A stretch of 64,000 nt of DNA from Alphaproteobacteria bacterium (GTDB lineage: Bacteria > Pseudomonadota > Alphaproteobacteria > UBA11073): assembly GCA_965246945.1 (NCBI GenBank), contig CBDFFW010000001.1:1142691-1206690 (forward strand). Reading direction: 5' to 3'. Each line of letters starts with the position of its first letter. The stretch's first letter is position 1. Below, one piece after another: positions 5,856 to 44,660 of this stretch. Under the pieces are notes generated by a model that saw only the letters and a list, made by a program, of their open reading frames with translations, did no database searches and was not told the DNA's origin. Position numbers and translations under genes: made by a program.

Positions 5856-5939
5856 GCCCTTGTGGCGGAATGGTAGACGCGGTAGACTCAAAATCTATTA
5901 TCGCAAGATGTGGGAGTTCGAGTCTCCCCGAGGGCACCA
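5856..5939 (+). tRNA. tRNA-Leu (anticodon CAA) with encoded CCA
   Basis: The acceptor stem GCCCTTG pairs with CGAGGGC. The anticodon stem-loop GTAGA-CTCAAAA-TCTAT gives anticodon CAA. A long variable arm and a GGTTCGAGTC-type T-arm (GGGAGTTCGAGTCTCCC) are present, followed by discriminator A and CCA. Confidence 0.9.
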
Positions 5940-7605: not shown

Positions 7606-8133
7606 ATGATTCCGCATCCTCTACGCGCAGCGATATGTTTGCTGATATTATTATCCAGTGTTTTATGCGGCCATGTGGCGCAGGCACAACATGAACAAAC
7701 CACATTACCGCAAGCCGATTTGATTGTGGTGCATAAAAAAGAACACGAACTTGAATTGTGGCGCGATGGCGAAACGATTTTAAAATATCCCATTGCTTTG
7801 GGCTTTAACCCAGTTGGCCATAAAATTTACCAGGGTGATGGCAAAACACCCGAAGGGGTTTATACCATTATCGAAAAAAAGCAAAATAGCGGTTTTCACC
7901 GCGCCTTAATGCTGAATTACCCGAATGAGGCGGATAAGCAAACTGCTGCGGCGCAAGGGTTAACCCCGGGTGCATATATCGCCATTCATGGCATGCCCAA
8001 TGGTCAAACGCCCGAAACGATGGAACATCCCAAACGGGACTGGACCGATGGCTGTGTCGCCTTAACCGATGCGCAAATAGACACCATCTGGGAACGCGTC
8101 GCGCCAGGGACACCGGTGTTGATTATGCCTTAA
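7606..8133 (+). CDS. L,D-transpeptidase family protein (YkuD/YafK-like)
   Basis: Contains IAIHG...HPKRDWTDGCVALTDAQIDTIW with a catalytic Cys. The likely start is MIPHPLRAAICLLILL (signal peptide) at 7606 within ORF 7513..8133. Confidence 0.85.
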   Translation: MIPHPLRAAICLLILLSSVLCGHVAQAQHEQTTLPQADLIVVHKKEHELELWRDGETILKYPIALGFNPVGHKIYQGDGKTPEGVYTIIEKKQNSGFHRALMLNYPNEADKQTAAAQGLTPGAYIAIHGMPNGQTPETMEHPKRDWTDGCVALTDAQIDTIWERVAPGTPVLIMP

Positions 8134-9226
8134 TTTTTAACCGCGTGGTTTTGGCGGTGAAGTTGAGTAGCGCGGGTGCCAGCCGGCATAGGTTAAATAG
8201 AATATTTTGTCCAAAAGGTTGAACCAGCATTTGTGATAATCGGGTTGCCACCCGAATTTTTAACGATAAATCAGCAAGCATTTTTTGCTGATACGTTTCG
8301 ATATCATGCTGCAAAAAACAGTTTACGGCGGTAGTTGCCGTATGCAGCGCAATTGACATGCCATTACCGACAAATGATGGAATGACCGCCATTTGATCGC
8401 CGAGCCGATATAAGTTAGGCAGATTATCAGCGCTAGATTGGTGAACCATACCATAAGGAATACCAAAAATGGCTAAGGGTTTAAGCCAGCAAGGTGTGGC
8501 ATCTTTTAAACGTGCAGCCAAGGCAGGAACTTTGAATAATTCAGCCAATAAGTGCGGCCAGCTTTTATTTAGTGCAGCAAAACGCGCTTTGGTGACGACC
8601 AAACATAAATTGATTAATCCGTCTTCTACATTTTCAATACCGGCATAACCACCGGCAAATAAAACAATATCCGTTTGCGCTACGGTATCTGGCACTGCTT
8701 TTTGAAAGTACATTTTAAAACCAATTAAATCATTTTGTAGGCCGGCCGGACGTGGCCAACCGCGCAAATCATGCTTGCCGGTCGCCAAAAAAACAGCCTT
8801 GGCTGCTAATGGCTTGTTTTGCGGGGCAACTTCAACTTGCCAGTGCGCATTTTCTTGCCAGAGCCGATTGGCGGATTGTCCGCGCCATATTTCCACCCCG
8901 CATTGCGTTGCACGCTGCAATAACGCTTCATCCAGACGGTAACGGGACAAGCTGTAAGCATGGAATGGCAAAGGATGCGTTACGGTTTTATCATACTGAA
9001 TTAATCTAACTTGGTCGATGCGTCTGGCACCCAAGCTAGGCAGTTCGATGCCCAATTGCGTTAGATAGTTTTGGGCTTCAATACTAATAAATTCGCCGCA
9101 AACTTTGTGATGTGCTTGCGCTTCTTTTTCAATTAATAGCACTTTTTGTTTAGCCTGCGCCAAGCCGATGGCGGCCGCGGTGCCTGCCAATCCGCCGCCA
9201 ATCACAATGGCATCATATACAGCCAT
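8123..9226 (-). CDS. FAD-dependent oxidoreductase/hydroxylase (geranylgeranyl-reductase-like flavoprotein), third gene of the type III PKS cluster
   Basis: Contains MAVYDAIVIGGGLAGTAAAIGL (a GxGxxG FAD fold). The start ATG shares 1 nt with the stop of the upstream methyltransferase (TGATG). Confidence 0.85.
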   Translation of the reverse strand: MAVYDAIVIGGGLAGTAAAIGLAQAKQKVLLIEKEAQAHHKVCGEFISIEAQNYLTQLGIELPSLGARRIDQVRLIQYDKTVTHPLPFHAYSLSRYRLDEALLQRATQCGVEIWRGQSANRLWQENAHWQVEVAPQNKPLAAKAVFLATGKHDLRGWPRPAGLQNDLIGFKMYFQKAVPDTVAQTDIVLFAGGYAGIENVEDGLINLCLVVTKARFAALNKSWPHLLAELFKVPALAARLKDATPCWLKPLAIFGIPYGMVHQSSADNLPNLYRLGDQMAVIPSFVGNGMSIALHTATTAVNCFLQHDIETYQQKMLADLSLKIRVATRLSQMLVQPFGQNILFNLCRLAPALLNFTAKTTRLKIKA

Positions 9227-9936
9227 CAGCGCCAGCGGTTCACACAGTAACGGAAAGGGAACCACCATCGAATGGCTGATTGCGCGGCTGGAATATTGGC
9301 TTGGTGCAGCAATGTTTGCCAGTCTTGTTTGACAAATGCACGTTCGATAGAAATTGGCCCATCATGTTTTACCATCGGATCAAGCGGCAGTGCAGCGAAC
9401 AAATATTTGACAAAATAGTAAGGGATTGGATGACGATGCAGATCGTTAATAAACCAGCCTTGTGTGGCATGCTGTTCCATCCAACCAATAAATTTCAGCA
9501 ATTCAGTGTTGTTGAGATGATGCGTGAAAAGCGAACTAATAACAAAATCCGCCTGCCGCGCCGCAGCAATTTGATAAATGTCTACTGTTTCAAAATGGAT
9601 TGGCGTTTCGACAGACGTATGTACTTTGGCCGATTGCTGGGCCAGCGGATTAATATCCATGCCATATAATTCCACCGCAACATTATAGCGCTTAGCCAAC
9701 CGCCAGATTTGCCGCAGCATATCTCCGCCGCCGCTGCCGATATCAAAAATCACAATCGGCCGCTGCGGTTTAAAATTATGAAAAATTTGTTTTAACCATT
9801 GCAAAGTTGGCCGGTAGGCCAGCGTGCCGATATTGACTTTGGTTAAATCTTTTAAACAATTATCGAAAGCGGCTGCCGTTACCGTGTCGGTATCCATCCA
9901 TTCCAATTGCTGACTGCGGGTAGCAAAATTAGGCAT
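9226..9936 (-). CDS. SAM-dependent methyltransferase
   Basis: 236 aa with motif I VIFDIGSGGGDM and a class I methyltransferase fold pattern. It overlaps the PKS gene by 8 nt. Confidence 0.85.
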   Translation of the reverse strand: MPNFATRSQQLEWMDTDTVTAAAFDNCLKDLTKVNIGTLAYRPTLQWLKQIFHNFKPQRPIVIFDIGSGGGDMLRQIWRLAKRYNVAVELYGMDINPLAQQSAKVHTSVETPIHFETVDIYQIAAARQADFVISSLFTHHLNNTELLKFIGWMEQHATQGWFINDLHRHPIPYYFVKYLFAALPLDPMVKHDGPISIERAFVKQDWQTLLHQANIPAAQSAIRWWFPFRYCVNRWR

Positions 9937-10972
9937 TGTGAAACATCATACTTTCCAGCGTAATACCTGGGCCGAACGCCATGGCGCAGCCTAAACCGGT
10001 TTTTCCTTCTGCCAATATACGCTGCAATACGAACATCAGTGTGGCGGATGACATATTACCGTATTCACGTAGCACAGCGCGTGAATGATCGAGGGCAGCA
10101 GGCGGCAAATCCAAATTTTCGGCGATGGCGTCCAAAATCGAACGGCCACCTGGATGAATGGCCCAATGGGTTATTTCAGCTTGTAAGTGGCCATGCAAAA
10201 TATCCGGCAATATAGCTGGCAAATTTTTAGTAATCGTTGGCGGCACCTGGCCGGAAAGCACCATATTGAAACCGGCTTGGCCAATATGCCAGGTAATGTG
10301 CTGCGCGCTATCGGGCAGTAAAGCGGCATAAAAACTTTGCAGTTTAAGTCCCTGAGGTTTGGCCGAAATAATACTGGCGGCACAGCCATCGGCAAAAATT
10401 AAAAATGATAAGACGCTTTCCAGATCTGCCGTATCTTGCAAATGTAATGTGCATAATTCCAAATTAATTACCGCAACTTTTGCAGCAGGCGTTGAGCGTG
10501 TAATGTGATAGGCCAATTTCAGGGCGTTAATTGCTGCATAGCAACCCATAAAACCGATGATGCTACGCTCGGTTGTTGATGGTAAGCCGTAATGCTGAAT
10601 GATTTGCAGGTCCAGGCCAGGGGCATAAAAGCCGGTGCAGCTGGTAATAATTAGATGGGTGACATCTTCCAAATCCAGTTGATCCAATGCCATTGTTGCG
10701 AGCGAAAAAGCATGCTGTTCATAAAACTGCATACGCGCGGCGGTATCTGGAAAATTATCCTTTTGATAAAAATTATCTCCGTCTAGTTGCTGAGCATCTT
10801 TGCCTGGTGAAAAAAAAGAATAGCGGTGATCAATTTGCGCACGCGCGGCCATGCGGCCAAATAATTTTTGCTGTTTATCACTGGTTAACAAGCTTGGCGC
10901 GTATGCCACAAATTGTTGATGAATATCATGCGGTGGTACGGCTGTCGCAATTTGATTAATAAAAACACCCAT
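9929..10972 (-). CDS. Type III polyketide synthase (chalcone/stilbene synthase superfamily)
   Basis: 347 aa with a Cys-His-Asn triad in the expected contexts: ITSCTGFYAPGLD, WAIHPGGRSIL and YGNMSSATLMFVL. The C-terminal GFGPG-like loop reads AFGPGITLE. Confidence 0.9.
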   Translation of the reverse strand: MGVFINQIATAVPPHDIHQQFVAYAPSLLTSDKQQKLFGRMAARAQIDHRYSFFSPGKDAQQLDGDNFYQKDNFPDTAARMQFYEQHAFSLATMALDQLDLEDVTHLIITSCTGFYAPGLDLQIIQHYGLPSTTERSIIGFMGCYAAINALKLAYHITRSTPAAKVAVINLELCTLHLQDTADLESVLSFLIFADGCAASIISAKPQGLKLQSFYAALLPDSAQHITWHIGQAGFNMVLSGQVPPTITKNLPAILPDILHGHLQAEITHWAIHPGGRSILDAIAENLDLPPAALDHSRAVLREYGNMSSATLMFVLQRILAEGKTGLGCAMAFGPGITLESMMFHNA

Positions 10973-10978
10973 ATAAAT

Positions 10979-12529
10979 TTAGCCGACGATCCCTTTCACC
11001 TTGCCGCTGAGGTCGGCTAGGGAGTAAGGTTTGGGTAAGAAATAAATGCCGTCTTCTTCATCAATTGGCATATTGAGTTTATCTTCGGTATAGCCGGATA
11101 CAAATAACACTTTCAACGTTGGGTAAGTTTCGCGCAGCTTTAGGAATAGTTGTGGACCATCCAGGCCGGGCATAATGACATCGGTAATTAGCAATTGGAT
11201 GGTTGGAATGTTATCGCCAGTCATGATGTCAATGGCCGCTTCACCATGCGCAGCTTCGATGACTTCATAACCTTTTAGTTTGAGGGCGCGGGCGCTGAAT
11301 TGGCGCACGGCATCTTCATCTTCCACCAATAAAATCGTTCCGGCACCGGTTAAATCCTGGGCAGGTTTTGGGGCTTTTGCTTCCTTAACTACGGGCGCTT
11401 CTTCAATAGCGGTATGCTCGGGCAGATAAAGTGTAAAGGTGGTACCAATGCCCATTTCGCTTTGCACGCCAATTTGGCCGCCGGATTGCTGGACAATACC
11501 GTAAACCGTCGCCAGGCCTAAGCCGGTGCCTTGCCCCAATGGTTTGGTGGTAAAAAACGGTTCGAAAATGCGGGCGAGATTTTCGGAGGAAATGCCGGTG
11601 CCGGTATCTCGCACACTCACCGCTTGCCAGCGGCCGGCGGGCAGTGTGGTTTGCGGGCCAATGGTTTCGGTGGCATCGCTGATATGCTGAAAAGTTTTAA
11701 TTTGGAGCTGGCCGCCCTTCGGCATGGCATCGCGCGCATTAACCGCCAGGTTGATAATTGCTTGTTCTAATTGGGTATGGTCGGCAAAAACCAAACCCAC
11801 ATCGCGCGAGTAATCCAGATGCAACGTAACTTTTTCGCCCAGCAGGCGTTTTAATAGATGAGCAAGCTCGCCCACCACTTCGATCAGATCAACGGATTTG
11901 GGCTGCAGGGTTTGCTGGCGTGAAAAGGCCAGAATCTGCCGCACCAGATTGGCCCCGCGCGAGGCATTTTGTTTGATCTGCATAATATCGCCAAAGCTGG
12001 GATCGCCCGCTTTGTGCCGCAGGGCGAGCAGATCGCAAAAGCCAATAATGGCGGTAAGCAAATTATTGAAATCATGGGCGATGCCACCGGCCAACTGGCC
12101 AACCGCCTGCATTTTTTGGGATTGCGCCAGCTGATCATCGGTCATCACCAATGGCGCGGGGGGCGGCGCGGCCGCCTGGGCGGTAATCATCACCGCATTC
12201 GTAAAACCGGCGGGGCGGTACCAATGAAGTTGCAAGCGTTGCTGGCCATGGGCCGTGGCGAATTCACCGGAATAACTGCGCGGTTCCACCGGCATAATCT
12301 GGCCGCGCGGCCAAAACTGCTCCCAGCCTTCGCCAGGTAGTAATGATTGCAGCGGGATAGCTTCGCTGCCACGGCTGGAATTGCTAATGCCAATCAACTG
12401 TTCGGCTTGCCTATTTGCCACCAAAACCTGCCCATCTGAACTGGTAAGCCAGGCGGCGAATGGCAGGCCATTGCATAATTGCTGGAAAAGCTGGGCAGGA
12501 TCAATTTTGGCCGGCTTGCGTTTAAACAT
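10979..12529 (-). CDS. Soluble hybrid sensor histidine kinase/response regulator (PAS-HisKA-HATPase-REC), CckA-like catalytic core
   Basis: 516 aa with no TM segment and an N-terminal PAS-like region. The H-box is GGIAHDFNNLLTAIIGF, the N box NLAVNARDAM, and the G boxes DTGTGI and GTGLGLATVYG. The C-terminal receiver reads ILLVEDEDAVR...DVIMPGLDG...KP. Confidence 0.88.
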   Translation of the reverse strand: MFKRKPAKIDPAQLFQQLCNGLPFAAWLTSSDGQVLVANRQAEQLIGISNSSRGSEAIPLQSLLPGEGWEQFWPRGQIMPVEPRSYSGEFATAHGQQRLQLHWYRPAGFTNAVMITAQAAAPPPAPLVMTDDQLAQSQKMQAVGQLAGGIAHDFNNLLTAIIGFCDLLALRHKAGDPSFGDIMQIKQNASRGANLVRQILAFSRQQTLQPKSVDLIEVVGELAHLLKRLLGEKVTLHLDYSRDVGLVFADHTQLEQAIINLAVNARDAMPKGGQLQIKTFQHISDATETIGPQTTLPAGRWQAVSVRDTGTGISSENLARIFEPFFTTKPLGQGTGLGLATVYGIVQQSGGQIGVQSEMGIGTTFTLYLPEHTAIEEAPVVKEAKAPKPAQDLTGAGTILLVEDEDAVRQFSARALKLKGYEVIEAAHGEAAIDIMTGDNIPTIQLLITDVIMPGLDGPQLFLKLRETYPTLKVLFVSGYTEDKLNMPIDEEDGIYFLPKPYSLADLSGKVKGIVG

Positions 12530-24490: not shown

Positions 24491-25348
24491 CTATATTTTT
24501 TGAATATTAGTGCAATCCGCGCAAGCGGCAATTAGTTGCTTAATTGTTTGGCCCTTTTGGGGGTGCTGCCATTCGGGCGCAATATCGTGCAACGGCAGTA
24601 GGACAAAAGCCCGCTCCGCCAAATAGGGATGCGGGACAGTGAGCATTTCATTTTGGATAATTTTATTGCCCCAGGCAATGATATCGATATCCAAAGTGCG
24701 GGAGGCATTTTTAACACTGCGCTGCCGCCCGAATTGTGTTTCGATAGCAATGATCGCTTCCATTACTTCAGCGGGTAAAAGCACTGTTTTAACGGCTACC
24801 ACGGCATTAATGTAATCCGGTTGTTCCATGCCGAGCCAGGGCGGTGATTGGTAAAAAGGAGAAACGGTTTGCACGTGAATATTATGCTGTGGCAACACGG
24901 CAATTGCCTGCTCCAGCGTGGCAACGGGAAGCTGGTTTTGCCAAGGCAAATTCGCGCCTAATCCTAAATATATTACCCCTTTGTCATCCCGGGCTTGTCC
25001 CGGGATCCATGCCGAAGCTTGCTTGAGCTTTGGCTCAAAATTGCTAAGCTGAATTTCAATTAAATTCTCAGCCAAATCTTGCCAGGATGGATTTTGCTTT
25101 TCGATTAAGTTATATTTATACTCACGCTTATAATGCTTAATTTGTTTTTCACGATGGATAGCCTGATCAATATAGTTGAAAACTTCATAGTAAACTAATT
25201 GATTGAGGCTATATTTTTTAGTAAATCCTTCAATCTGCTTTTGTTTATGCGCCCTAATCCGTTGTTCAAGATTACTAGTTACCCCTGTATAAAGTGTGCC
25301 ATATTTTTTGTTTGTTAAAATATAAACGAAATATTCATGATTTTTCAT
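24491..25348 (-). CDS. folK: Single 285-codon ORF fusing an N-terminal GIY-YIG nuclease domain (residues ~1-97) to HPPK/FolK (residues ~125-285) through repeat-encoded linker codons
   Basis: The N-terminal part FVYILTNKKYGTLYTGVTSNLEQRIRAH...YYE is a YhbQ/UPF0213-type GIY-YIG domain. The C-terminal part IYLGLGANLPW...RTLDIDII...VPHPYLAERAFVLLPL is 2-amino-4-hydroxy-6-hydroxymethyldihydropteridine diphosphokinase. No ATG, GTG or TTG lies near the start of the FolK domain; the codons there are AAA GGG GTA ATA TAT TTA. Confidence 0.8.
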   Translation of the reverse strand: MKNHEYFVYILTNKKYGTLYTGVTSNLEQRIRAHKQKQIEGFTKKYSLNQLVYYEVFNYIDQAIHREKQIKHYKREYKYNLIEKQNPSWQDLAENLIEIQLSNFEPKLKQASAWIPGQARDDKGVIYLGLGANLPWQNQLPVATLEQAIAVLPQHNIHVQTVSPFYQSPPWLGMEQPDYINAVVAVKTVLLPAEVMEAIIAIETQFGRQRSVKNASRTLDIDIIAWGNKIIQNEMLTVPHPYLAERAFVLLPLHDIAPEWQHPQKGQTIKQLIAACADCTNIQKI

Positions 25349-25384: not shown

Positions 25385-25417
25385 AATAGAAAAATCAAAT
25401 GAAAAGTGCAAATAAAG

Positions 25418-25572
25418 CCAGGTGGGCGATGGATATTGATTATCCCTGCGGCCCTTGATTAAGGTGGGCGCCGTATGTCTGCAGCCACGGCCACAGCCAG
25501 GAACAGCTCCCTTGCAGTGATACGAGTATCGGCTCGGGGGATGAATGCATCCTGTCGCGCCACCCAGCCATG
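25418..25572 (-). ncRNA. ssrS: Probable 6S RNA (ssrS)
   Basis: A non-coding stretch of about 155 nt lies immediately downstream of zapA, the conserved proteobacterial zapA-ssrS synteny. The 5' end (GGGUGGCGCGACAGGAUGCAUUCAUCCC) and 3' end (GGGAUAAUCAAUAUCCAUCGCCCACC) can form a long, interrupted closing helix around a GC-rich central region. The ends are approximate. Confidence 0.55.
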
Positions 25573-25578
25573 AATAGT

Positions 25579-36976: not shown

Positions 36977-37384
36977 ATGGATGTTCAAAAAGATACCTTA
37001 TTAGAAATGCAACTAGCGGTAAAAGCCGGTAATGCTTTCTTTGTCATTAACCCAGCCCGTACTGTTTTGATTGGTGACATTACTGAAGCTGAGATTAAAA
37101 ACCATGCGGCACCGCTTAGCCCATTAGGGCCGGTAACGGCTGCAGTTTTAACGGCGCTTAATCCAAATGTTGTTTATGTAACTGGCCGCGATCCCAATAA
37201 AGGGAATGGCGATGGAAAATCTTTGGAAGATATGTTAGGGCCAGAAGGTGCCAATTCACCGCGTGTGGCTTGTAATGGTTCGACAATTGGTTTACCAGAT
37301 GCCAATGGTAAAATTGTTGACGTTGTTGAAGGGCCAGCAATGCCGGTTGAACAAGTAGAAGCTTTTGAAGCGCTTGCCAGCTAA
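36977..37384 (+). CDS. Orphan hypothetical protein (first of a two-gene cassette)
   Basis: 135-aa ORF with an AGGAGA Shine-Dalgarno upstream, no signal peptide and no recognised motif. Confidence 0.55.
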   Translation: MDVQKDTLLEMQLAVKAGNAFFVINPARTVLIGDITEAEIKNHAAPLSPLGPVTAAVLTALNPNVVYVTGRDPNKGNGDGKSLEDMLGPEGANSPRVACNGSTIGLPDANGKIVDVVEGPAMPVEQVEAFEALAS

Positions 37385-37396
37385 CATAAAGGTGTT

Positions 37397-37891
37397 GTGA
37401 TTAACAAAAAGCCTGATGCAACCAGTACTGTTACTATTTGTTTCAACGGTTCGAATGTATCACCTGATGATTGGAAAGATGCAGCTGACGCAGCGATTGC
37501 ATTATTTACAAAAAGTGGAGCCGGTAATTTTATCGCTAAACGTAAAGATGATGATAAAATTATTGAATTTATTTTGAACCCGGAAGCGGGCGTGTCGAGA
37601 GCCAACGGTGTTCTAAAAGCATTACAGTCATTGCAAGTGCCAACAACTAAAGTCATCTTTGTGATTGGTTACGATGCAGATCCTGCTTTAGATGCCGGTA
37701 TTGCACCTGTGTTAATCAGAAATAATTACGTTACCCGTGATATTTCTGTAGGCGCCAAAGCTTATGGTCATGTTAATTATGCGACGGCACAAGATTTTAA
37801 AGAAAATCTTTTATACCCTGCCTTGGGTATTAACCCAACTGCCGTTTTAGCAGCAAACGCTGAAAAAGCACCGGTTATCGGTGGTCAATAA
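37397..37891 (+). CDS. Orphan hypothetical protein (second of a two-gene cassette)
   Basis: 164-aa ORF that appears to start at GTG, 12 nt after the preceding stop, with AAAGGTG upstream. No recognised motif. Confidence 0.5.
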   Translation: MINKKPDATSTVTICFNGSNVSPDDWKDAADAAIALFTKSGAGNFIAKRKDDDKIIEFILNPEAGVSRANGVLKALQSLQVPTTKVIFVIGYDADPALDAGIAPVLIRNNYVTRDISVGAKAYGHVNYATAQDFKENLLYPALGINPTAVLAANAEKAPVIGGQ

Positions 37892-37912: not shown

Positions 37913-37950
37913 AAAAGGCATTCAGCAACTTGTTGAATGCCTTTTTTTTA
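37913..37950. terminator. Bidirectional rho-independent terminator between the orphan cassette and flhA
   Basis: AAAA-GGCATTCA-GCAACTTGT-TGAATGCC-TTTTTTTT: an 8-bp stem flanked by an A-run and a T-run. Confidence 0.7.
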
Positions 37951-40050
37951 TACTTGCCCCACCGTCCGGATTTTCGCTTTCGGGTGAATCTCATTCTGGC
38001 TCATCACCGTGGTTTGGGCGCGGAAGCGTTCGATGATGGAGCGGACATAGGGGCGGATGCCAGGGGAGGTGAGTAAGACCGGGTTTTCGCCGGCTTCCAT
38101 CTGCCGCTGATAGGTTTCACGCACTTTGACGATAAATTCCTGCAGGCGGCGCGGGGCCATGGAGAGCTGTTTATCCTCATTCGGGCCGGTCAGGCTTTCC
38201 CCAAATTCCTGTTCCCATTCGGGCGAGAGGGTGAGCAGGGTCACATAACCCTGTTCATTGGCGTGACTATCGCATAATTGGCGCGCGAGGCGGGAGCGAA
38301 TATGTTCGGTCATTGCGCCTAAGTTGCGGGTGAAGCCAACCGCTTCGGCCACGCCTTCTAAAATCGCCGGTAGATCGCGGATTGAGACGCGCTCGGCCAA
38401 TAAACCTTGCAACACGCGCTGTAAGCTGGCCACACTGATTTGCGCGGGGATGAGATCAGCCACCAGTTTTTGGTATTCGACCGGCAGATTATCGAGCAGT
38501 TTTTGCGTTTCGCTATAGGTCAGTAAATCGGAAAGATTTTCGCGCACCGCTTCGGTTAAATGCGTGGTGATGACCGAGGGCGGATCGACCACGGTATAGC
38601 CGCGGAACAGCGCTTCCTCGCGTTTGCTGTCATCAATCCATTTGGCGGGCAGACCGAAGGTTGGCTCGGTTGTTGCTTCGCCGTCAACTTGGATAGCTTG
38701 CCCGCGCGGGTCCATGGCCAGTAATTGGCCCAAGCGTAATTTGCCGCGGCCGGCATCGATTTCTTTGATCTTCAACACATATTCATCGGGGCCGAGCTGC
38801 AAATTATCCTGAATACGCACGGAGGGCAGTACAAAGCCAAGCTCGCTCGCCAATTGGCGGCGCAGGCCCTTGATTTGATTGGTCAGGCGTTGATCACTTT
38901 CACCGCTGACCAGGCCGAGCAGGGCATAGCCCAGTTCCAAGCGGATATTATCAATCGCCAGCGCGGTGCTGATGGGTTCATCGGCCGGCGCGGCTGGGGC
39001 AGCCGCCACTTTTGAAGCATCCGATGCCGCCAATTCTTTAATAAATTTACGCTGCGAATGCAGTTTATAAGACAGCCAACCGGCACCACTGGCCAATAAC
39101 AAAAAGGGCGGCATGGGCATGCCAGGCAGAAATGACACCGTGAGCATCACAAAGCTAACAATGCCAAGACCCGCCGGATGGGCGGTAATTTGGCCAACAA
39201 TGGCTTTTTGCACTGAGCCAGTTACGCCGGCTTTGGTGACAATCACGCCCGAGGCGAACGAGATAATGAGGGCAGTAATTTGGCCAACCAGGCCCTCCCC
39301 GATGGTCAGCAAAGTATAATTTTTGGCGGCTTCGCCGACATCCATGCCATGTTGCAAAGTGCCGATAATGAGACCGCCAATGACGTTGATGAAAGTAATC
39401 AGTAAACCGGCCACGGCATCCCCGCGCACGAATTTGGCGGCCCCATCCATGGCGCCGTAAAAACCGCTTTCTTCTTCCAATTCTTTGCGCCGCGTTTTGG
39501 CGACATCTTCGGTGACCAGGCCGGCCGATAAATCGGCATCAATCGCCATTTGTTTGCCAGGCATGGCATCCAAGCTGAAGCGCGCGGCCACTTCCGCAAT
39601 TCGGCCGGAACCTTTGGTGATGACAATAAAATTAACGGTGACGATGATGGCAAAAACCACCACACCGATCACAAAATTGCCGGCCATTAACTGGCCAAAC
39701 GCATGCACAATGCTGCCGGCCGCCTGGGTGCCTTCATGCCCGTTGGAGAGAATAAGACGGGTGGCGGCGATATTCAGGGCGAGCCGAAACATGGTGACGA
39801 CTAGCAGCACGGTGGGGAATGATGTGAATTCAAGTGGTTTTTCAATAAATAACGCCGTCATTAAAATGGCCACGGCCAGCATCATTGAGGTGGCCAGCAG
39901 CATATCGATCAGCCATTTGGGGACAGGGAAAAAGATGAGGATGAGAATGGCAAAAACGCCAACCGCGAACATGGTAGGCCCAGCCCGCGCACCGGCGATA
40001 AAATCGCCGAAGATATTGCTGCCTTGCTCAATGGTAACGGGTGTCGACAA
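37948..40050 (-). CDS. flhA: Flagellar type III export apparatus protein FlhA (FHIPEP family)
   Basis: 700 aa with FSLDAMPGKQMAIDADLSAGL and GAMDGAAKFVRGDAVAG. The KFVRGDA form favours flagellar FlhA over injectisome SctV. There are 8 TM segments and a C-terminal cytoplasmic ring domain. Confidence 0.9.
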   Translation of the reverse strand: MSTPVTIEQGSNIFGDFIAGARAGPTMFAVGVFAILILIFFPVPKWLIDMLLATSMMLAVAILMTALFIEKPLEFTSFPTVLLVVTMFRLALNIAATRLILSNGHEGTQAAGSIVHAFGQLMAGNFVIGVVVFAIIVTVNFIVITKGSGRIAEVAARFSLDAMPGKQMAIDADLSAGLVTEDVAKTRRKELEEESGFYGAMDGAAKFVRGDAVAGLLITFINVIGGLIIGTLQHGMDVGEAAKNYTLLTIGEGLVGQITALIISFASGVIVTKAGVTGSVQKAIVGQITAHPAGLGIVSFVMLTVSFLPGMPMPPFLLLASGAGWLSYKLHSQRKFIKELAASDASKVAAAPAAPADEPISTALAIDNIRLELGYALLGLVSGESDQRLTNQIKGLRRQLASELGFVLPSVRIQDNLQLGPDEYVLKIKEIDAGRGKLRLGQLLAMDPRGQAIQVDGEATTEPTFGLPAKWIDDSKREEALFRGYTVVDPPSVITTHLTEAVRENLSDLLTYSETQKLLDNLPVEYQKLVADLIPAQISVASLQRVLQGLLAERVSIRDLPAILEGVAEAVGFTRNLGAMTEHIRSRLARQLCDSHANEQGYVTLLTLSPEWEQEFGESLTGPNEDKQLSMAPRRLQEFIVKVRETYQRQMEAGENPVLLTSPGIRPYVRSIIERFRAQTTVMSQNEIHPKAKIRTVGQV

Positions 40051-40100
40051 ACCGCAATCAGCCTAGCAAAGATTCGAGAGGGGGCGATGATTGTTTACTT

Positions 40101-40126
40101 GTCATCCCAGCGCAGGCCGGGATGAC
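40101..40126. repeat. Solo family C hairpin (GTCATCCCAGCGCAGGCCGGGATGAC)
   Basis: It has the same TTGTCATCCC / GGGATGACAA termini as the longer copies and lies between the giant ORF and flhA. Confidence 0.65.
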
Positions 40127-40134
40127 AATAAAAA

Positions 40135-43100
40135 TTATGCAACTGCTTTTACGGTCGGCAATTGCTGGTGATCTAACGCCGCTGCCAAATAGCTGTAAAG
40201 CTTGCCAATATCTGAAGTCATTAAGGTGGAGGCGAGTAAATCAGCCGTGTCCAACTGTAATGCTTGCCCGAATAACTCCTCAAACTGGCGCAGATATTTC
40301 ATGACCGCACCACGGAAATCGGCATTTTGCCAGTATTTTTCGCGGATTTTTTGGGCCGGAATATCGTCTTTAATGCCAACCAAACGTCTGGTAAAGGTGC
40401 CCAAATCGCCTTTGGCAATCGCTTGCCAATCCTGGTTGGGGCCAATGGGGTCTAAGGCTTTGGTGAGATCGATTGACAGGCTGTGCAAACCTTCAATCAC
40501 CTGTTTGGCATTGTTCAAAAAGACTTCACGGCGGCTGCGGGTTTCTTGATTTTGCAGTTTCTCCGTTTGGCTGACTGCTTCCTGGGTAACTACCTGCATT
40601 TCGCTCAGTTGACGACCAAGTAATTCGACCAAGCCTTGGCCGCGTTGGTTGGCCGTATTCATGGCTTTCAAGGTTTGATCGGCTTGCTGCACCAATGATT
40701 GACCGGCTTGCAGCAACACAGTTTGGGCGGCCGCAACGGCTGATTTAATGCTATCAACCTGTGTATTTAATTGCGTGCCGGTTTGCTGCAATTGGCCGGC
40801 GGCTTGCTGTTGTTGCTGCTGCAAACCTTGCCATTGCTGCTGGGCCGCTTGACCTGCTTGCGCCATGGCTTGCAGATTTTGCTGCGTGCCCTGGACCATT
40901 TGTTGTTGAGTCTGGCCTAGTTTAACCTGCTGTTGGTTAAATTCACCCACTGTGGTTTGCGCCGTTTGGGCCAATTGCTGCGCCATTTGGCGGAGCTGTT
41001 CCACTTCGGCCATCACTGTACTGCGGGCTTGCTGGCTATGGCTGCTGACGGCATCTAATTGTTGCTGTTGCAAGGCGCTGGCGGCCTGCATGGTCTGACT
41101 AATTTGCGCACCCTGTTTGGAGACAATTTGCGCTTGGTCCATTAAGTGCTGCGCGGCATGCGCAATCTGTGCCGTGGTTTCTGTGGCGGTGGCCAGCACT
41201 TCCTGGCTGGTTTGGCTGAGTTGTTGTTTGATGCCGTAAACCTTTTGGATGGCTTGATCGGTAATTAACCCCATATCCACGCCGGTGCTCTGCATTTGCT
41301 GTTCAACGGCATATAATTGCTGTTGGGTCGCTTGCGCGCGGGCGGTAATATCCTGATGGATTTGCTGTGCTTGCTGCTGCAATTGGGTTAATTGCTCGAT
41401 ATTAGAGTTACTGCCACTGGCCATGGCTTGATACGCATTTTGCAAGCTGCGGGATAATTCACCTAATTCATCATGGGTACGGAAGGCCAGGGAAGAGACT
41501 TCCAAGCCCATTTCGCGCATATGGTCGATCGCAGTTTGGTAGATTTGAGTGGCAGCGGTTCCACGCTCCATCAAACTTTGGGTTTCTTGGGCAGCCACAC
41601 GGGCCACATGCTGCAGCGCTGCAGTACCGCTGATGGCTTGGCTTTGTAAGGCTGCGGTTTGCTCGGCGGCAATATCAGCGGCTTTGCGGATGGTGGCGGT
41701 GGTTTGTTCGCCGGTTTGTTCAATTTTATTGCCGGCACCATCTAATAAATCGGCCAACCAAATAATATCCTTAGCACTGCGATCGGTAAGTAATGAAATT
41801 TCACTGCCTTCAGTTTTCAGCATTTGCATTGATTGATTTAGCTGCTGCAATAACTGTTGATGATCAGCGCCCAGGGTTTGGTTAAACTGACGGTAATTCG
41901 CCAGCGCTTCATCACTTTGTTGCGCAACCTGGCCGGCAGCGACGGCGATTTCCTGGCTTTGCTGACGCAAGCCGGTTTGCAATGAATGTGCATCGGCGAC
42001 CAAGCGTCCAGCGCTTTCATCCAATTGCGCCACCCCTTCGTCAACACTTTGCGTTAAAGTGGCTGCGGCTGCCTTGGCCACTTCGCCCACATTTTTAAAT
42101 TGATCTAACCGTTCGGTTGAACTGCTAATCACATCGCCTAATTCGGTTTTCAAGCTATGGATCGCCTGGCCAAAACCGCCTAATTGTGTGGATAGACTGC
42201 CTTGGGCTTGGTCCAATGTTTTAGTGGCATGTTCCAACACAGCCCGCTCGGCGCGCATATCTTGGGTAATATCCCGCAGATGCTGCACGTTGCTGGCACC
42301 AGCGGTGTAAAGATCCGCGCCTTCGCGCGTTAATTCGCCAAGCATGTTTTCCAGCATGCTCATCGCGCCGCTTAGCTCTTCACGCAATTGGGCGGTATCG
42401 CGGCCCAGAGTCTGGCTGATAATTTCGCTTTGCACGCGGGCGGCCGCCGTGGCTTCCACCAAATCACCGGCCATGCGTTCAACATTCGTGCCGACTTTAT
42501 CCGCGTGGTACGACATTTGATCATGCAGGCCGCGGGCCAGACCGATATGGTTCACCATTTGTGCCTGAAAGTGCTGATTTTGTTCGGCAGCAATGTCGGA
42601 AGCATCCCGCATATCAATGATGCGCTGCGCGACTGAGGCATTCAGTTGCATAATGCGTTCAACCGTGCGGTCGGTCGCTTGGCGCGCGACGACGGATAGG
42701 CCTTCAATCGTGCCAGCCAATTCGCCATGGAAATCTTTAAGATCTTTTTGGGCAGTTTGCGCTGACTCGGTGAAGCCATCGCGCAGGCCATGTAACTGAC
42801 CAGCCAGCGTGCCAACTGCTTGCCGCACAGTATTGGCCGCTTGATCGCCCATGCTGTTGGCGATGCGATCCAGGCTTTGCAGTGATTGGCCCAATTGATC
42901 TTCAATGGCCGCAATTTGCTGGCGCGTGGCTTGGCCCGTTTGCGCAAAACGCATTTCGATGTTCAGCAACTGGCGGGTTACCTCGTTCATGATCTCTTTG
43001 ATCATGTCCGGAGTGGTGGAAGCCGCGTCGGCCAAACGCTCTTGCAGTGTGATTAAGCGGCTTTCAAATTGCTGGTCAAACCCTTGAATTTGGGTAAGGG

Positions 43101-44421
43101 CCTGGCCGGCTGAGCGATCTAAAGTTGCCTGTACTTCATGGGAACGCGCGGTGAAATTTTCGCTCAAGTTACGGATTTGCGCCATCGCCTGAATAACCAC
43201 TGATTCAGCTGATTCACGGAAATCGCGAACCGATCCGCCAATTTCAGAGCCCATGCCGCCGAAGCGTTCCATCAGCTGCGTCATATCTGCAAATTGCTGA
43301 CCAAATTGCTTTTCCAATTTCAGCATTTGATCTTCAATTTTCACGCTGGCATCGCCCATGGCTTTTTCATGCGCAGAAAAACGGGCGGAGACATCGCCAA
43401 ACATATTGGCGGCATTAGCTGCACCGGATTCGAAAGCATGCATGCGTGCACCCAGTTCGTCCGCCACTTGGATCATGCGGCCATTGGCGGTGTGCAGACT
43501 GGAAACAGAACCAGTGATTTGCTGTTCAAAACGCTGAGTCGCTTCAGCAGCGCGCGCAATCATCGCATCGACAATTTTTTCCAAGGTTACAGAACCATCT
43601 AAAGCGTTTTGCTGAATGTTATTAATCCGGCCATCCAAAAGCTCAGATAATTTGGCCATTTGGCTGGTGCGTTCAACCAGAATAGTACTGGTGTCTTCCA
43701 AACGGGTGCTGGTGCCGTTCATCATTTTCTGCATGGCGGCAGCTTCGGCACGTAAGGCGCCGCGCGCCCGGCCAATAGTGCTTTCCACCTTTTCGGCCGC
43801 GGCGGTAAGTTCGCTTGCCTGCGCTTTTAAAGAATCGGTCAAAGCCCGTACGCGTGCTTCACTATCTTTGGCGGGATAAGTCAGCATTTTTAACTGATCG
43901 ACAACTGGTTGCAGATACGCGCGGAAATCATCATTACGCTGGATATGCGCCAACACCATCCACAATAAAGCAGGCGGGGCAGCCAAACCGGCAATCACAC
44001 TGCCCAGTTGATGCAATGGCATATGGATCAACCCGGACCAGCCAGTGGTCGAACTGATAAAATAGGTGGCAGTGGCCAGCCAACTGGCGCTGGCGACGGC
44101 ACCAATTTTTGAAACGGACCATTTAAATGGTGCCTGAATACCAGGCTTGTCATTCACATTGGCTGGTGCACTAGGCAGCGTGACAGTGCGTTTAATCGAA
44201 TCAGCGGCATTCTGCATCCGGCGAAAACTGCTGGGTGCCTGCGGGGCAGGGCGCATGGCTGGCGTCGGATGGGCGACTGTTTTCAGACTGTCGCGCAATG
44301 CCTGCAGGCGATCTTCAACCGTTTTTACCCGTTCATCAAAGCTTTCACGCGTTGGATTAGCATCCTCCGTCGCAGCGTCGCGCACTGCCTGGCCTTGATT
44401 ATTGATATTGTAAACAGTCAT
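40135..44421 (-). CDS. Giant membrane-anchored coiled-coil protein (1428 aa), TipN/GPR-like architecture
   Basis: A cytoplasmic N-terminus of about 105 aa is followed by two TM helices (IGAVASASWLATATYFISS, LGSVIAGLAAPPALLWMVLAHI). More than 1000 aa of Ala/Gln/Leu-rich heptad-like sequence follow, with poly-Q stretches near residue 1180. A non-repetitive C-terminal domain of about 150 aa ends the protein (FLNNAKQVIEGLHSLSIDL...FTRRLVG...YWQNADFRGAVMKYL). Co-directional with flhA, 84 nt upstream of it. Confidence 0.8.
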   Translation of the reverse strand: MTVYNINNQGQAVRDAATEDANPTRESFDERVKTVEDRLQALRDSLKTVAHPTPAMRPAPQAPSSFRRMQNAADSIKRTVTLPSAPANVNDKPGIQAPFKWSVSKIGAVASASWLATATYFISSTTGWSGLIHMPLHQLGSVIAGLAAPPALLWMVLAHIQRNDDFRAYLQPVVDQLKMLTYPAKDSEARVRALTDSLKAQASELTAAAEKVESTIGRARGALRAEAAAMQKMMNGTSTRLEDTSTILVERTSQMAKLSELLDGRINNIQQNALDGSVTLEKIVDAMIARAAEATQRFEQQITGSVSSLHTANGRMIQVADELGARMHAFESGAANAANMFGDVSARFSAHEKAMGDASVKIEDQMLKLEKQFGQQFADMTQLMERFGGMGSEIGGSVRDFRESAESVVIQAMAQIRNLSENFTARSHEVQATLDRSAGQALTQIQGFDQQFESRLITLQERLADAASTTPDMIKEIMNEVTRQLLNIEMRFAQTGQATRQQIAAIEDQLGQSLQSLDRIANSMGDQAANTVRQAVGTLAGQLHGLRDGFTESAQTAQKDLKDFHGELAGTIEGLSVVARQATDRTVERIMQLNASVAQRIIDMRDASDIAAEQNQHFQAQMVNHIGLARGLHDQMSYHADKVGTNVERMAGDLVEATAAARVQSEIISQTLGRDTAQLREELSGAMSMLENMLGELTREGADLYTAGASNVQHLRDITQDMRAERAVLEHATKTLDQAQGSLSTQLGGFGQAIHSLKTELGDVISSSTERLDQFKNVGEVAKAAAATLTQSVDEGVAQLDESAGRLVADAHSLQTGLRQQSQEIAVAAGQVAQQSDEALANYRQFNQTLGADHQQLLQQLNQSMQMLKTEGSEISLLTDRSAKDIIWLADLLDGAGNKIEQTGEQTTATIRKAADIAAEQTAALQSQAISGTAALQHVARVAAQETQSLMERGTAATQIYQTAIDHMREMGLEVSSLAFRTHDELGELSRSLQNAYQAMASGSNSNIEQLTQLQQQAQQIHQDITARAQATQQQLYAVEQQMQSTGVDMGLITDQAIQKVYGIKQQLSQTSQEVLATATETTAQIAHAAQHLMDQAQIVSKQGAQISQTMQAASALQQQQLDAVSSHSQQARSTVMAEVEQLRQMAQQLAQTAQTTVGEFNQQQVKLGQTQQQMVQGTQQNLQAMAQAGQAAQQQWQGLQQQQQQAAGQLQQTGTQLNTQVDSIKSAVAAAQTVLLQAGQSLVQQADQTLKAMNTANQRGQGLVELLGRQLSEMQVVTQEAVSQTEKLQNQETRSRREVFLNNAKQVIEGLHSLSIDLTKALDPIGPNQDWQAIAKGDLGTFTRRLVGIKDDIPAQKIREKYWQNADFRGAVMKYLRQFEELFGQALQLDTADLLASTLMTSDIGKLYSYLAAALDHQQLPTVKAVA

Positions 44422-44660
44422 GGATATGTGTCTCGTGCGGCGCGTGGGTGCTGATTCGTTAATAAGACGTTAACATGCTAAATTAACATGCCAACAGACT
44501 TTCTCTTAAAGGTTGTCAAAAAACTGTAAAGGGGTGAAATTTGGTCACACTATATAAAATGCAGTTGCGAAAAAATTCGGGTGATTATTCAGCAGGCAGT
44601 TTTAAAAATTTCATCAATAAATAATTTCAAATTATAAGGTTGCATCCATTACAATAAATT

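Follow-up and report, generated by a model that had tools for sequence, protein, structure and literature searches.

An open reading frame (ORF) at positions 40135 to 44421 of the 64,000-nucleotide (nt) stretch of alphaproteobacterial DNA analysed here, hereafter the window, encodes a protein of 1428 residues. This protein is a distant member of the GPR/RgsE superfamily, a group of giant, almost wholly alpha-helical cytoplasmic scaffolds anchored in the inner membrane of Alphaproteobacteria, and we propose that it is probably a membrane-anchored scaffold of the cell pole or division site. Both GPR (Atu1348) and RgsE are localised at the pole and required for rod shape, and the C-terminus of GPR is essential to its function (PMC8262873, PMC7327166). 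GPR forms a hexameric 200-nm ring at the growth pole, and its loss leads to round cells (PMC8262873). The assembly of GPR and RgsE at the new pole or division site is the model for the scaffold proposed here (PMC8262873, PMC7327166, PMC9239152). The ORF is real and lies far beyond chance, since it has a homologue of the same length and 71% identity (P0001) and is colinear over its full length with homologues in dozens of genomes; the continuous 4.3-kilobase frame of the original prediction, which had been made from the letters of the window without database searches, is thus confirmed. The protein and its parts are encoded as follows.

40135..44421, minus strand: the whole ORF, with an ATG start, 1428 residues; a distant GPR/RgsE-family protein of the window-type subfamily (group B below).
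44122..44421, minus strand: N-terminal cytoplasmic tail, residues 1-100, with 10 prolines; conserved in the closest relative only and variable in length across the family.
43864..44121, minus strand: membrane module, residues 101-186; first transmembrane helix (TM1, ~105-127), a short loop of ~10 residues, second transmembrane helix (TM2, ~139-160), then a juxtamembrane helix.
43189..43863, minus strand: rod segment 1, residues 187-411; ~9 repeats of 25 residues (period 25/7), phase roughly constant.
42652..43188, minus strand: rod insert, residues 412-590; ~170-180 residues missing from the clade with 938-residue rods, local period ~3.62-3.64 with drifting phase.
40540..42651, minus strand: rod segment 2, residues 591-1294; ~28 repeats of 25 residues, constant phase.
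40138..40539, minus strand: C-terminal domain (C-domain), residues 1295-1428; all-alpha and common to GPR/RgsE, conserved core at residues ~1304-1415.

At the level of sequence, homology to GPR was shown for both end modules of the protein. For this comparison, the sequence of GPR was taken from Fig. S3 of PMC8262873, from which 2,099 of its 2,115 residues were recovered. BLASTP aligned residues 1304-1415 of the window protein with residues 1984-2094 of GPR at 34% identity (E=2e-14) and returned no alignment beyond the C-domain. The membrane modules were compared as profiles with HHalign, in which those of the group that includes the window protein (group B) matched those of the group that includes GPR (group A) with a probability of 97.3% (E=1.8e-11) over 148 columns that cover both helices and the juxtamembrane segment, a score that the composition common to membrane segments can inflate. 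The likeness to GPR, which the original prediction had pointed out, is therefore corroborated as homology of the C-domain and of the membrane module. The prediction had also described a distinct C-terminal domain of about 150 residues; a separate domain is indeed present, its predicted structure comprising seven helices (pLDDT, the predicted local distance difference test score, of 85; predicted template modelling (TM) score of 0.81), although its size is 120-134 residues and not 150. By sequence, the C-domain gave only chance matches to the PDB (E>0.3), and a Foldseek search of the PDB with its model yielded no significant fold relative (best E of 1.3, TM scores of at most 0.42). None of the Pfam and NCBIfam models covers the domain. 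It is consequently not a well-known unrelated family, as it aligns with GPR and is without a Pfam model.

The breadth of the family became apparent only through an exhaustive profile search; the C-domain by itself had no match in a word-index search. The C-domain profile, compared with 1.84 billion representative proteins, matched 2,116 clusters (at 50% identity), 1,606 of them at E<1e-10. In nearly all full-length matches the domain is located at the extreme C-terminus of a protein of 1,100-1,900 residues, and most of these proteins show two hydrophobic segments at residues ~100-250. With the full protein as query, the word-index search yielded the close homologue P0001 and the distant P0002, the C-terminus of which carries a clear motif in common with the window protein. 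No record identical to the window protein turned up in an exact look-up. The profile matches fall into two groups, namely group A, of Rhizobiales type, in which the names Pseudolabrys, Xanthobacteraceae and Rhodoplanes were seen, and group B, which includes the window protein. A genome scan then provided 80 related loci, mostly with up to 10 kilobases on each side. The scan used a narrow alignment (A3), the mixed-subfamily alignment (A2) being too diverse, and its loci are thus biased towards the subfamily of the window. The named relatives at these loci are Micavibrio, Rhodospirillales, Rickettsiales or unclassified (alpha)proteobacterial, none being named Rhizobiales; the majority are labelled Micavibrio or similarly, or are unclassified alphaproteobacterial metagenome-assembled genomes. 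One homologue, at L023, belongs to the cultivable Micavibrio aeruginosavorus. The best C-domain identity among the 80 loci is 55%, which indicates that the species of the window itself is absent from them. Distant homologues of RgsE and GPR have previously been described in Emcibacterales and Rhodospirillales, without the other Rgs proteins, none of which the paper reports beyond the Rhizobiales, and a different role was suggested for them (PMC7327166). Two short members of the family, P0087 (L083:6001-7953, 650 residues) and P0134 (L082:6001-8769, 922 residues), keep both membrane helices and the C-domain. Because these two proteins are complete, the family ranges from ~650 to more than 2,100 residues, and the size of TipN falls within this range.

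The two closely spaced transmembrane helices that had been predicted are supported by hydropathy, by family-wide conservation and by structure prediction. Both segments are free of charged residues and, although TM1 is only moderately hydrophobic in the window protein, the family-mean hydropathy peaks reach 1.6 and 2.0. The juxtamembrane helix that follows TM2 has a conserved R..D and ends at a conserved proline (residue 182). AlphaFold2, run with 14 family sequences, modelled the membrane module as a helix-loop-helix with a break at this proline, followed by a single unbroken helix from residue 182 to 334 (pLDDT 79). The hairpin was thus shown to be the inner-membrane anchor of the protein. 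With a loop of ~10 residues between the two hydrophobic segments, both ends of the protein would lie on the same side of the membrane. This topology bears on the proposal that such a large, repetitive protein, with many relatives in predatory Micavibrio-like bacteria, might be secreted or displayed at the surface for interaction with a host or prey. We consider this reading barely credible, because the protein has no signal peptide, the hairpin keeps both ends together, its homologues GPR and RgsE are cytoplasmic (PMC8262873, PMC7327166), and free-living Rhizobiales have members of the family too.

Between its two end modules, the protein consists of a rod of ~1,108 residues without proline (about residues 200-1300). 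Alanine makes up 13.9% of the protein, glutamine 13.0%, leucine 9.4% and threonine 7.3%, the longest glutamine runs are Q6 at residue 1201 and Q4 at residue 1118, and the last 294 residues of the rod are 28% Gln. This agrees with the earlier description of more than 1000 residues rich in Ala, Gln, Leu and Thr with poly-Q runs. Contrary to the earlier description, the rod is not heptad-like. Fourier analysis of hydropathy gave a sharp and globally coherent peak in both groups, at ~3.65 residues (hendecad-like) in group A, GPR included, and at 3.57, or 25/7, in every group B protein. In the window rod the power at 3.57 is ~390-460, versus ~9 in shuffled sequences, and in Micavibrio-like homologues it exceeds 1,000. 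The autocorrelation of the rod has maxima at 25, 50 and 75 residues, which in homologues extend to 250. Folding the rod on 25 residues revealed seven core positions per repeat, spaced 3-4-4-3-4-3-4, the two strongest of which are occupied by Leu, Ile, Val, Met or Phe in 96% and 87% of cases. On this sequence pattern, the rod reads as a heptad-heptad-hendecad (7-7-11) coiled coil, which is neither a plain heptad nor the 11/22-residue lipid-binding pattern. In total it contains ~37 repeats of 25 residues and one insert of ~170 residues. Tandem Repeats Finder detected no DNA-level tandem repeats in the ORF, from which it follows that the 25-residue repeats are ancient and diverged. Our literature search on coiled coils with 25-residue repeats found no match.

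The periodicity also helps to assess whether the protein could be an apolipoprotein-like lipid binder, in which a long amphipathic helix would lie flat against the inner membrane or lipid bodies, where it would organise lipids rather than proteins. GPR is defined by near-continuous Pfam apolipoprotein (PF01442) domains and is classed accordingly, with a proposed role in lipids (PMC8262873), and the window protein has weak matches to PF01442 (E=4.5e-4) and to ApoLp-III (PF07464), the latter at residues 429-562, inside the rod insert. Moreover, genes for a patatin-like phospholipase and an MsbA-like ABC exporter are often found downstream in the Micavibrio-like clade. These matches, however, fall far below the cut-offs of the models. 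In one test of PF01442, with a cut-off of 90 bits, GPR scored 136.7 and P0002 of group A 130.8, versus 20.4 for the window protein and 16.6 for P0011 of group B; L019 and P0057, likewise of group B, gave no match at E<=0.01. On PF07464 the window protein scored 17.1 bits against a cut-off of 36.3. The period of the rod is 3.57 and not the 3.67 of 11/22-residue lipid-binding repeats, which only the ~170-residue insert approaches, and the core stripes of Leu, Ile and Ala, seven per 25 residues, are typical of helix-helix packing. Finally, the synteny with lipid genes is limited to one clade and absent in the window. A lipid-binding function of this kind is therefore improbable in our judgement.

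The length of the rod is a second property that distinguishes the two groups. With two hidden Markov models, it was measured as the interval that separates the C-domain from the membrane module. A rod of exactly 938 residues occurs in 52 group B proteins, 46 of them coming from genome-scan loci, each from a different species (L007-L080, for example L019:6488-10411). These rods align without gaps although their pairwise identity has a median of 45% and a minimum of 22%, and in Micavibrio-like homologues the 25/7 phase is constant along all 938 residues. Neighbouring genes in the same genomes, which are better conserved (59-66% identity), do have indels, a rough control given that some of these ORFs are cut at locus ends. 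In group A, by comparison, rods range from ~850 to more than 1,700 residues. The clade of the window itself has rods of 1,108-1,112 residues in six proteins, four of which are only 28% identical to the window rod. The latter is colinear with the model of the 938-residue rod, residues 195-386 corresponding to positions 9-200 and residues 488-1293 to positions 133-937 (full-sequence E=4.5e-56). Changes in length are concentrated in a single indel hotspot at model positions ~145-235, where P0124 is shorter by 72 residues, L006 is shorter by 150 and the window protein is longer by ~170. Steps in multiples of 25 residues were also considered; the differences between clades are not clean multiples, and no quantisation is claimed.

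A rod of this length, free of indels, also brings to mind a general cytoskeletal filament or an SMC-like fold-back arm with no specific function at the pole. The arms of SMC proteins are indel-free as their two strands must match, non-heptad periodicity is also known from the bacterial filament formers Scy and FilP, and the window protein has a weak match to SMC_prok_B (E=3.5e-4). At 18.4 bits, this match (TIGR02168) stays far under the cut-off of 567; it is confined to the coiled-coil region, and there are no ATPase head domains. The changes in length between clades occur at a single site and not in pairs, and the phase is unbroken across 938 residues, with no hinge; both observations favour an extended parallel rod over an SMC-like fold-back. 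The protein also has both its membrane anchor and its conserved terminal domain in common with a known pole-ring protein. We thus regard a generic filament or fold-back arm as an unlikely explanation.

The fully extended length of the rod was computed as ~139 nm for the 938-residue form and ~165 nm for that of the window. It is tempting to speculate, with more doubt than confidence, that the rod serves as a molecular ruler, in which a coiled coil of fixed length would set a fixed dimension of a structure at the pole or division site, such as the size of a ring. The subfamily would then be a counterpart of the growth pole ring outside the Rhizobiales, and possibly an evolutionary link to TipN-type landmarks. 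If this were true, the dimension set by the rod would be the ~139 nm or, with the 1,108-residue rod of the window, the ~165 nm given above.

The position of the ORF directly upstream of flhA had led to the idea that the protein might be a landmark or scaffold for placing the flagellar export gate. The following features bear on this idea and on transcription at the locus.

37948..40050, minus strand: flhA, 700 residues, intact (TIGR01398 866 bits, FHIPEP 831 bits); downstream neighbour, position not conserved.
40099..40128, minus strand: perfect stem-loop of 13 base pairs directly after the stop codon of the large ORF, without a U-tract, unique in the window.
37913..37945, no strand assigned: hairpin of 15 base pairs just past the stop of flhA; terminator-like on the plus strand, where a T-run follows.
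44452..44478, minus strand: conserved upstream footprint of 27 nt, GCATGTTAACGTCTTATTAACGAATCA, which holds TTAA-N7-TTAAC at 44458-44473, 37-52 nt upstream of the ATG.

The co-direction of the two genes and their spacing of 84 nt are correct as predicted, provided that flhA starts at the TTG at 40050, and flhA is the sole recognisable flagellar gene of the window among the ORFs scanned with Pfam, a scan that took in nearly all those of at least 150 residues (all but two or three) and covered smaller ones only unsystematically. The functional link itself is not supported by the homologues. When FlhA of the window was used as a tblastn query, no match was obtained in the 80 related loci; three further loci, those of shorter family members, are likewise without flhA or other flagellar neighbours. 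In the closest relative (P0001, contig L081, ~70% nucleotide identity), the gene order is leuC, the large gene and then a gene for a 337-residue response regulator, which takes the place of flhA, and the nucleotide sequence ceases to resemble that of the window at the large gene's stop codon. This response regulator (L081:5809-6822) consists of a receiver domain and ~200 residues without a Pfam match, and has no counterpart in the window. In the two closest of the 80 loci, L001 and L002 (from OZ251979.1), the divergent leuC, which is also the upstream neighbour in the window, is kept, and a phage-type integrase is found downstream (L001:5305-6528, L002:11986-13161), which suggests an integration hot spot at this point. 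Genes for a Na:Ala symporter, a HAD-like hydrolase, a patatin-like lipase and an MsbA-like ABC exporter, together with miaB, are the conserved neighbours in the Micavibrio-like clade, and no flagellar or known polarity gene is among them. By these results, the homologues are without linkage to flagellar or polarity genes. Since no related locus contains flhA and other genes follow in the closest relatives, the adjacency is specific to the window genome. It looks like a lineage-specific accident, in which the two genes may be co-transcribed in the window, rather than a conserved functional coupling. As a separate observation, a HAD-like hydrolase, a patatin-like phospholipase and an MsbA-like ABC exporter usually lie downstream of the homologue in L005-L080, a lipid-related neighbourhood of uncertain significance.

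Transcription signals were examined in the same light. The 84-nt gap (40051-40134) contains no canonical intrinsic terminator, and the 101-nt stretch with the stem-loop folds with -30.4 kcal/mol (z = -2.35); read-through from the large ORF into flhA is possible. The flhA transcription unit may end at the hairpin at 37913..37945. Upstream of the large ORF, the 27-nt footprint is identical in the window and L081 while the surrounding spacer has diverged, and its motif TTAA-N7-TTAAC corresponds to the consensus of the CtrA box in Caulobacter. Five TTAA-N7-TTAA sites are present in the window, versus 2.4 expected, none of them near flhA or in the gap. Conservation of the box in L081, which has no flhA downstream, assigns it to the large gene and suggests that this gene may be under cell-cycle control in the lineage of the window through a CtrA-box-like site. 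A general enrichment of the box upstream of family members was considered and rejected, its frequency (2 of 62 loci) being equal to the 2.5% background. Beside TTAA-N7-TTAAC there is also a direct repeat, TGGCATG...GCATG (window 44452-44500), and both are conserved in L081; a sigma-54 promoter reading of the TGGCATG repeats was dropped because the spacing is unfit.

Taken together, these data make a TipN-like flagellar landmark, marking the new pole and, by co-transcription with flhA, placing the export gate there, an explanation to which we attach little probability. It would account for the co-directional genes and the short gap without a canonical terminator. The sole nearby CtrA-like box lies upstream of the large ORF, and transcription of flhA could start from that promoter, given that the Caulobacter flhA belongs to the CtrA-dependent class II genes. 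Most relatives, moreover, are labelled Micavibrio or related, and Micavibrio has a single polar flagellum. TipN shares the overall layout and is needed for flagellum placement, but it works via TipF and switch proteins and not FlhA (PMC4085708), and neither a TipF-like (EAL) gene nor any other flagellar gene was found among the scanned ORFs of the window. The absence of flhA from the related loci, the response regulator that follows the end of similarity in the closest relative, the retention there of a box that serves the large gene and the stable hairpin of 13 base pairs between the two genes all stand against this explanation.

For the proposed membrane-anchored scaffold of the pole or division site, the following mechanism can be envisaged. 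The two-helix hairpin anchors the protein in the inner membrane, and the rod would run beneath it as an extended, parallel and weakly supercoiled coiled coil of ~165 nm, as its periodicity suggests. The C-domain may dock partners or other copies of the protein, and several molecules, like those of GPR, could form an arc or ring of fixed size at the new pole or division site. Expression may be controlled by the cell cycle via the conserved CtrA-box-like site. The extension, orientation and oligomerisation of the rod are read from its sequence periodicity and its localisation from analogy. Several points weigh against the proposal, apart from the inflatable HHalign score. The window rod fails the Pfam apolipoprotein model that is typical of GPR (20.4 against 90 bits) and its period also differs, so that the working part of the molecule is not conserved. 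Polar growth, which GPR serves, is a trait of the Rhizobiales, and the cellular role here may differ, as PMC7327166 suggests. The placement at the pole draws on GPR and RgsE and not on members of the subfamily, and the CtrA-like box is no general feature of the family (2 of 62 loci).

The remaining genes of the window identified with Pfam are housekeeping genes, among them ileS, gatB, accC, folP/folK, dnaN, nrd, purD, lptD, rpsB and tsf. Between ileS and flhA there are two ORFs without a Pfam or NCBIfam match, at 36977-37384 (plus strand, 135 residues) and 37397-37891 (plus strand, 164 residues), which are convergent with flhA; the second and flhA have the hairpin at 37913-37945 in common. The window also contains a tRNA-Leu(CAA) at 5856-5939 and a 6S RNA gene at 25411-25573 on the minus strand (Rfam RF00013, 51.8 bits). 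Beside folP, an ORF of 285 residues (24491-25348, minus strand) encodes an unusual fusion of an N-terminal GIY-YIG nuclease domain to HPPK (folK). At 8123-12529 on the minus strand, consecutive genes encode a chalcone-synthase-like type III polyketide synthase, a methyltransferase and an FAD oxidoreductase, with a hybrid histidine kinase beside them. These genes may be a small cluster of alkylresorcinol or pyrone type.

Of a family of more than 2,000 clusters, whose C-domain is without a Pfam or NCBIfam model, only GPR and RgsE have been studied, and they have so far been interpreted through their apolipoprotein-like repeats and the polar growth of the Rhizobiales. The locus described here represents a sister group, with only Micavibrio-like and other non-Rhizobiales alphaproteobacterial names in the scan, in which the end modules are kept and the rod is swapped for 25-residue repeats of near-invariant length. 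This suggests that the conserved functional core consists of the anchor, the tail domain and the length of the rod rather than of lipid-binding repeats. The combination of a near-invariant rod length with the 25/7 repeat is, in our view, the most interesting property of the subfamily, and the tempting link to the flagellar export gate is removed as unsupported.

Among known systems, the closest likeness is to GPR. Both proteins have two N-terminal membrane helices in a homologous membrane module, more than 1,000 residues of continuous helix (here Pro-free from about residue 200 to 1300, with coherent periodicity and an AlphaFold2 helix at residues 182-334) and a homologous domain of ~115 residues at the extreme C-terminus (34% identity). 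They differ in size, GPR having 2,115 residues versus 1,428 here, and in the region before the C-domain, which is a Pro-rich linker in GPR, whereas here there is none (no proline at residues 591-1294) and the preceding rod is Gln-rich. Rod lengths also vary widely in the GPR group, whereas they are nearly fixed in that of the window. RgsE of Sinorhizobium meliloti (SMc00190), the GPR orthologue with 42% identity to it, has the same architecture; it differs from the window protein in its 2,089 residues, its up to ten apolipoprotein domains and its partnership with RgsA, RgsS and TolQ in a polar-growth machine. Scy and FilP of Streptomyces are likewise very long coiled-coil scaffolds with regular non-heptad repeats and a part in polar organisation; they are, however, soluble actinobacterial proteins with a 51-residue repeat, without a membrane hairpin and not known to be homologous. 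The match to the layout of TipN of Caulobacter crescentus (882 residues), which had been pointed out in the original prediction, holds for architecture only, that is, for the two N-terminal membrane helices and the large cytoplasmic coiled-coil region, and no match of the profile search carried the name TipN. TipN is a landmark of the new pole and division site (PMC4085708) and has been called analogous to GPR in a 2026 paper (PMC13170164). It is shorter than the window protein, and its flagellar role is exerted via TipF and PflI and not via FlhA.

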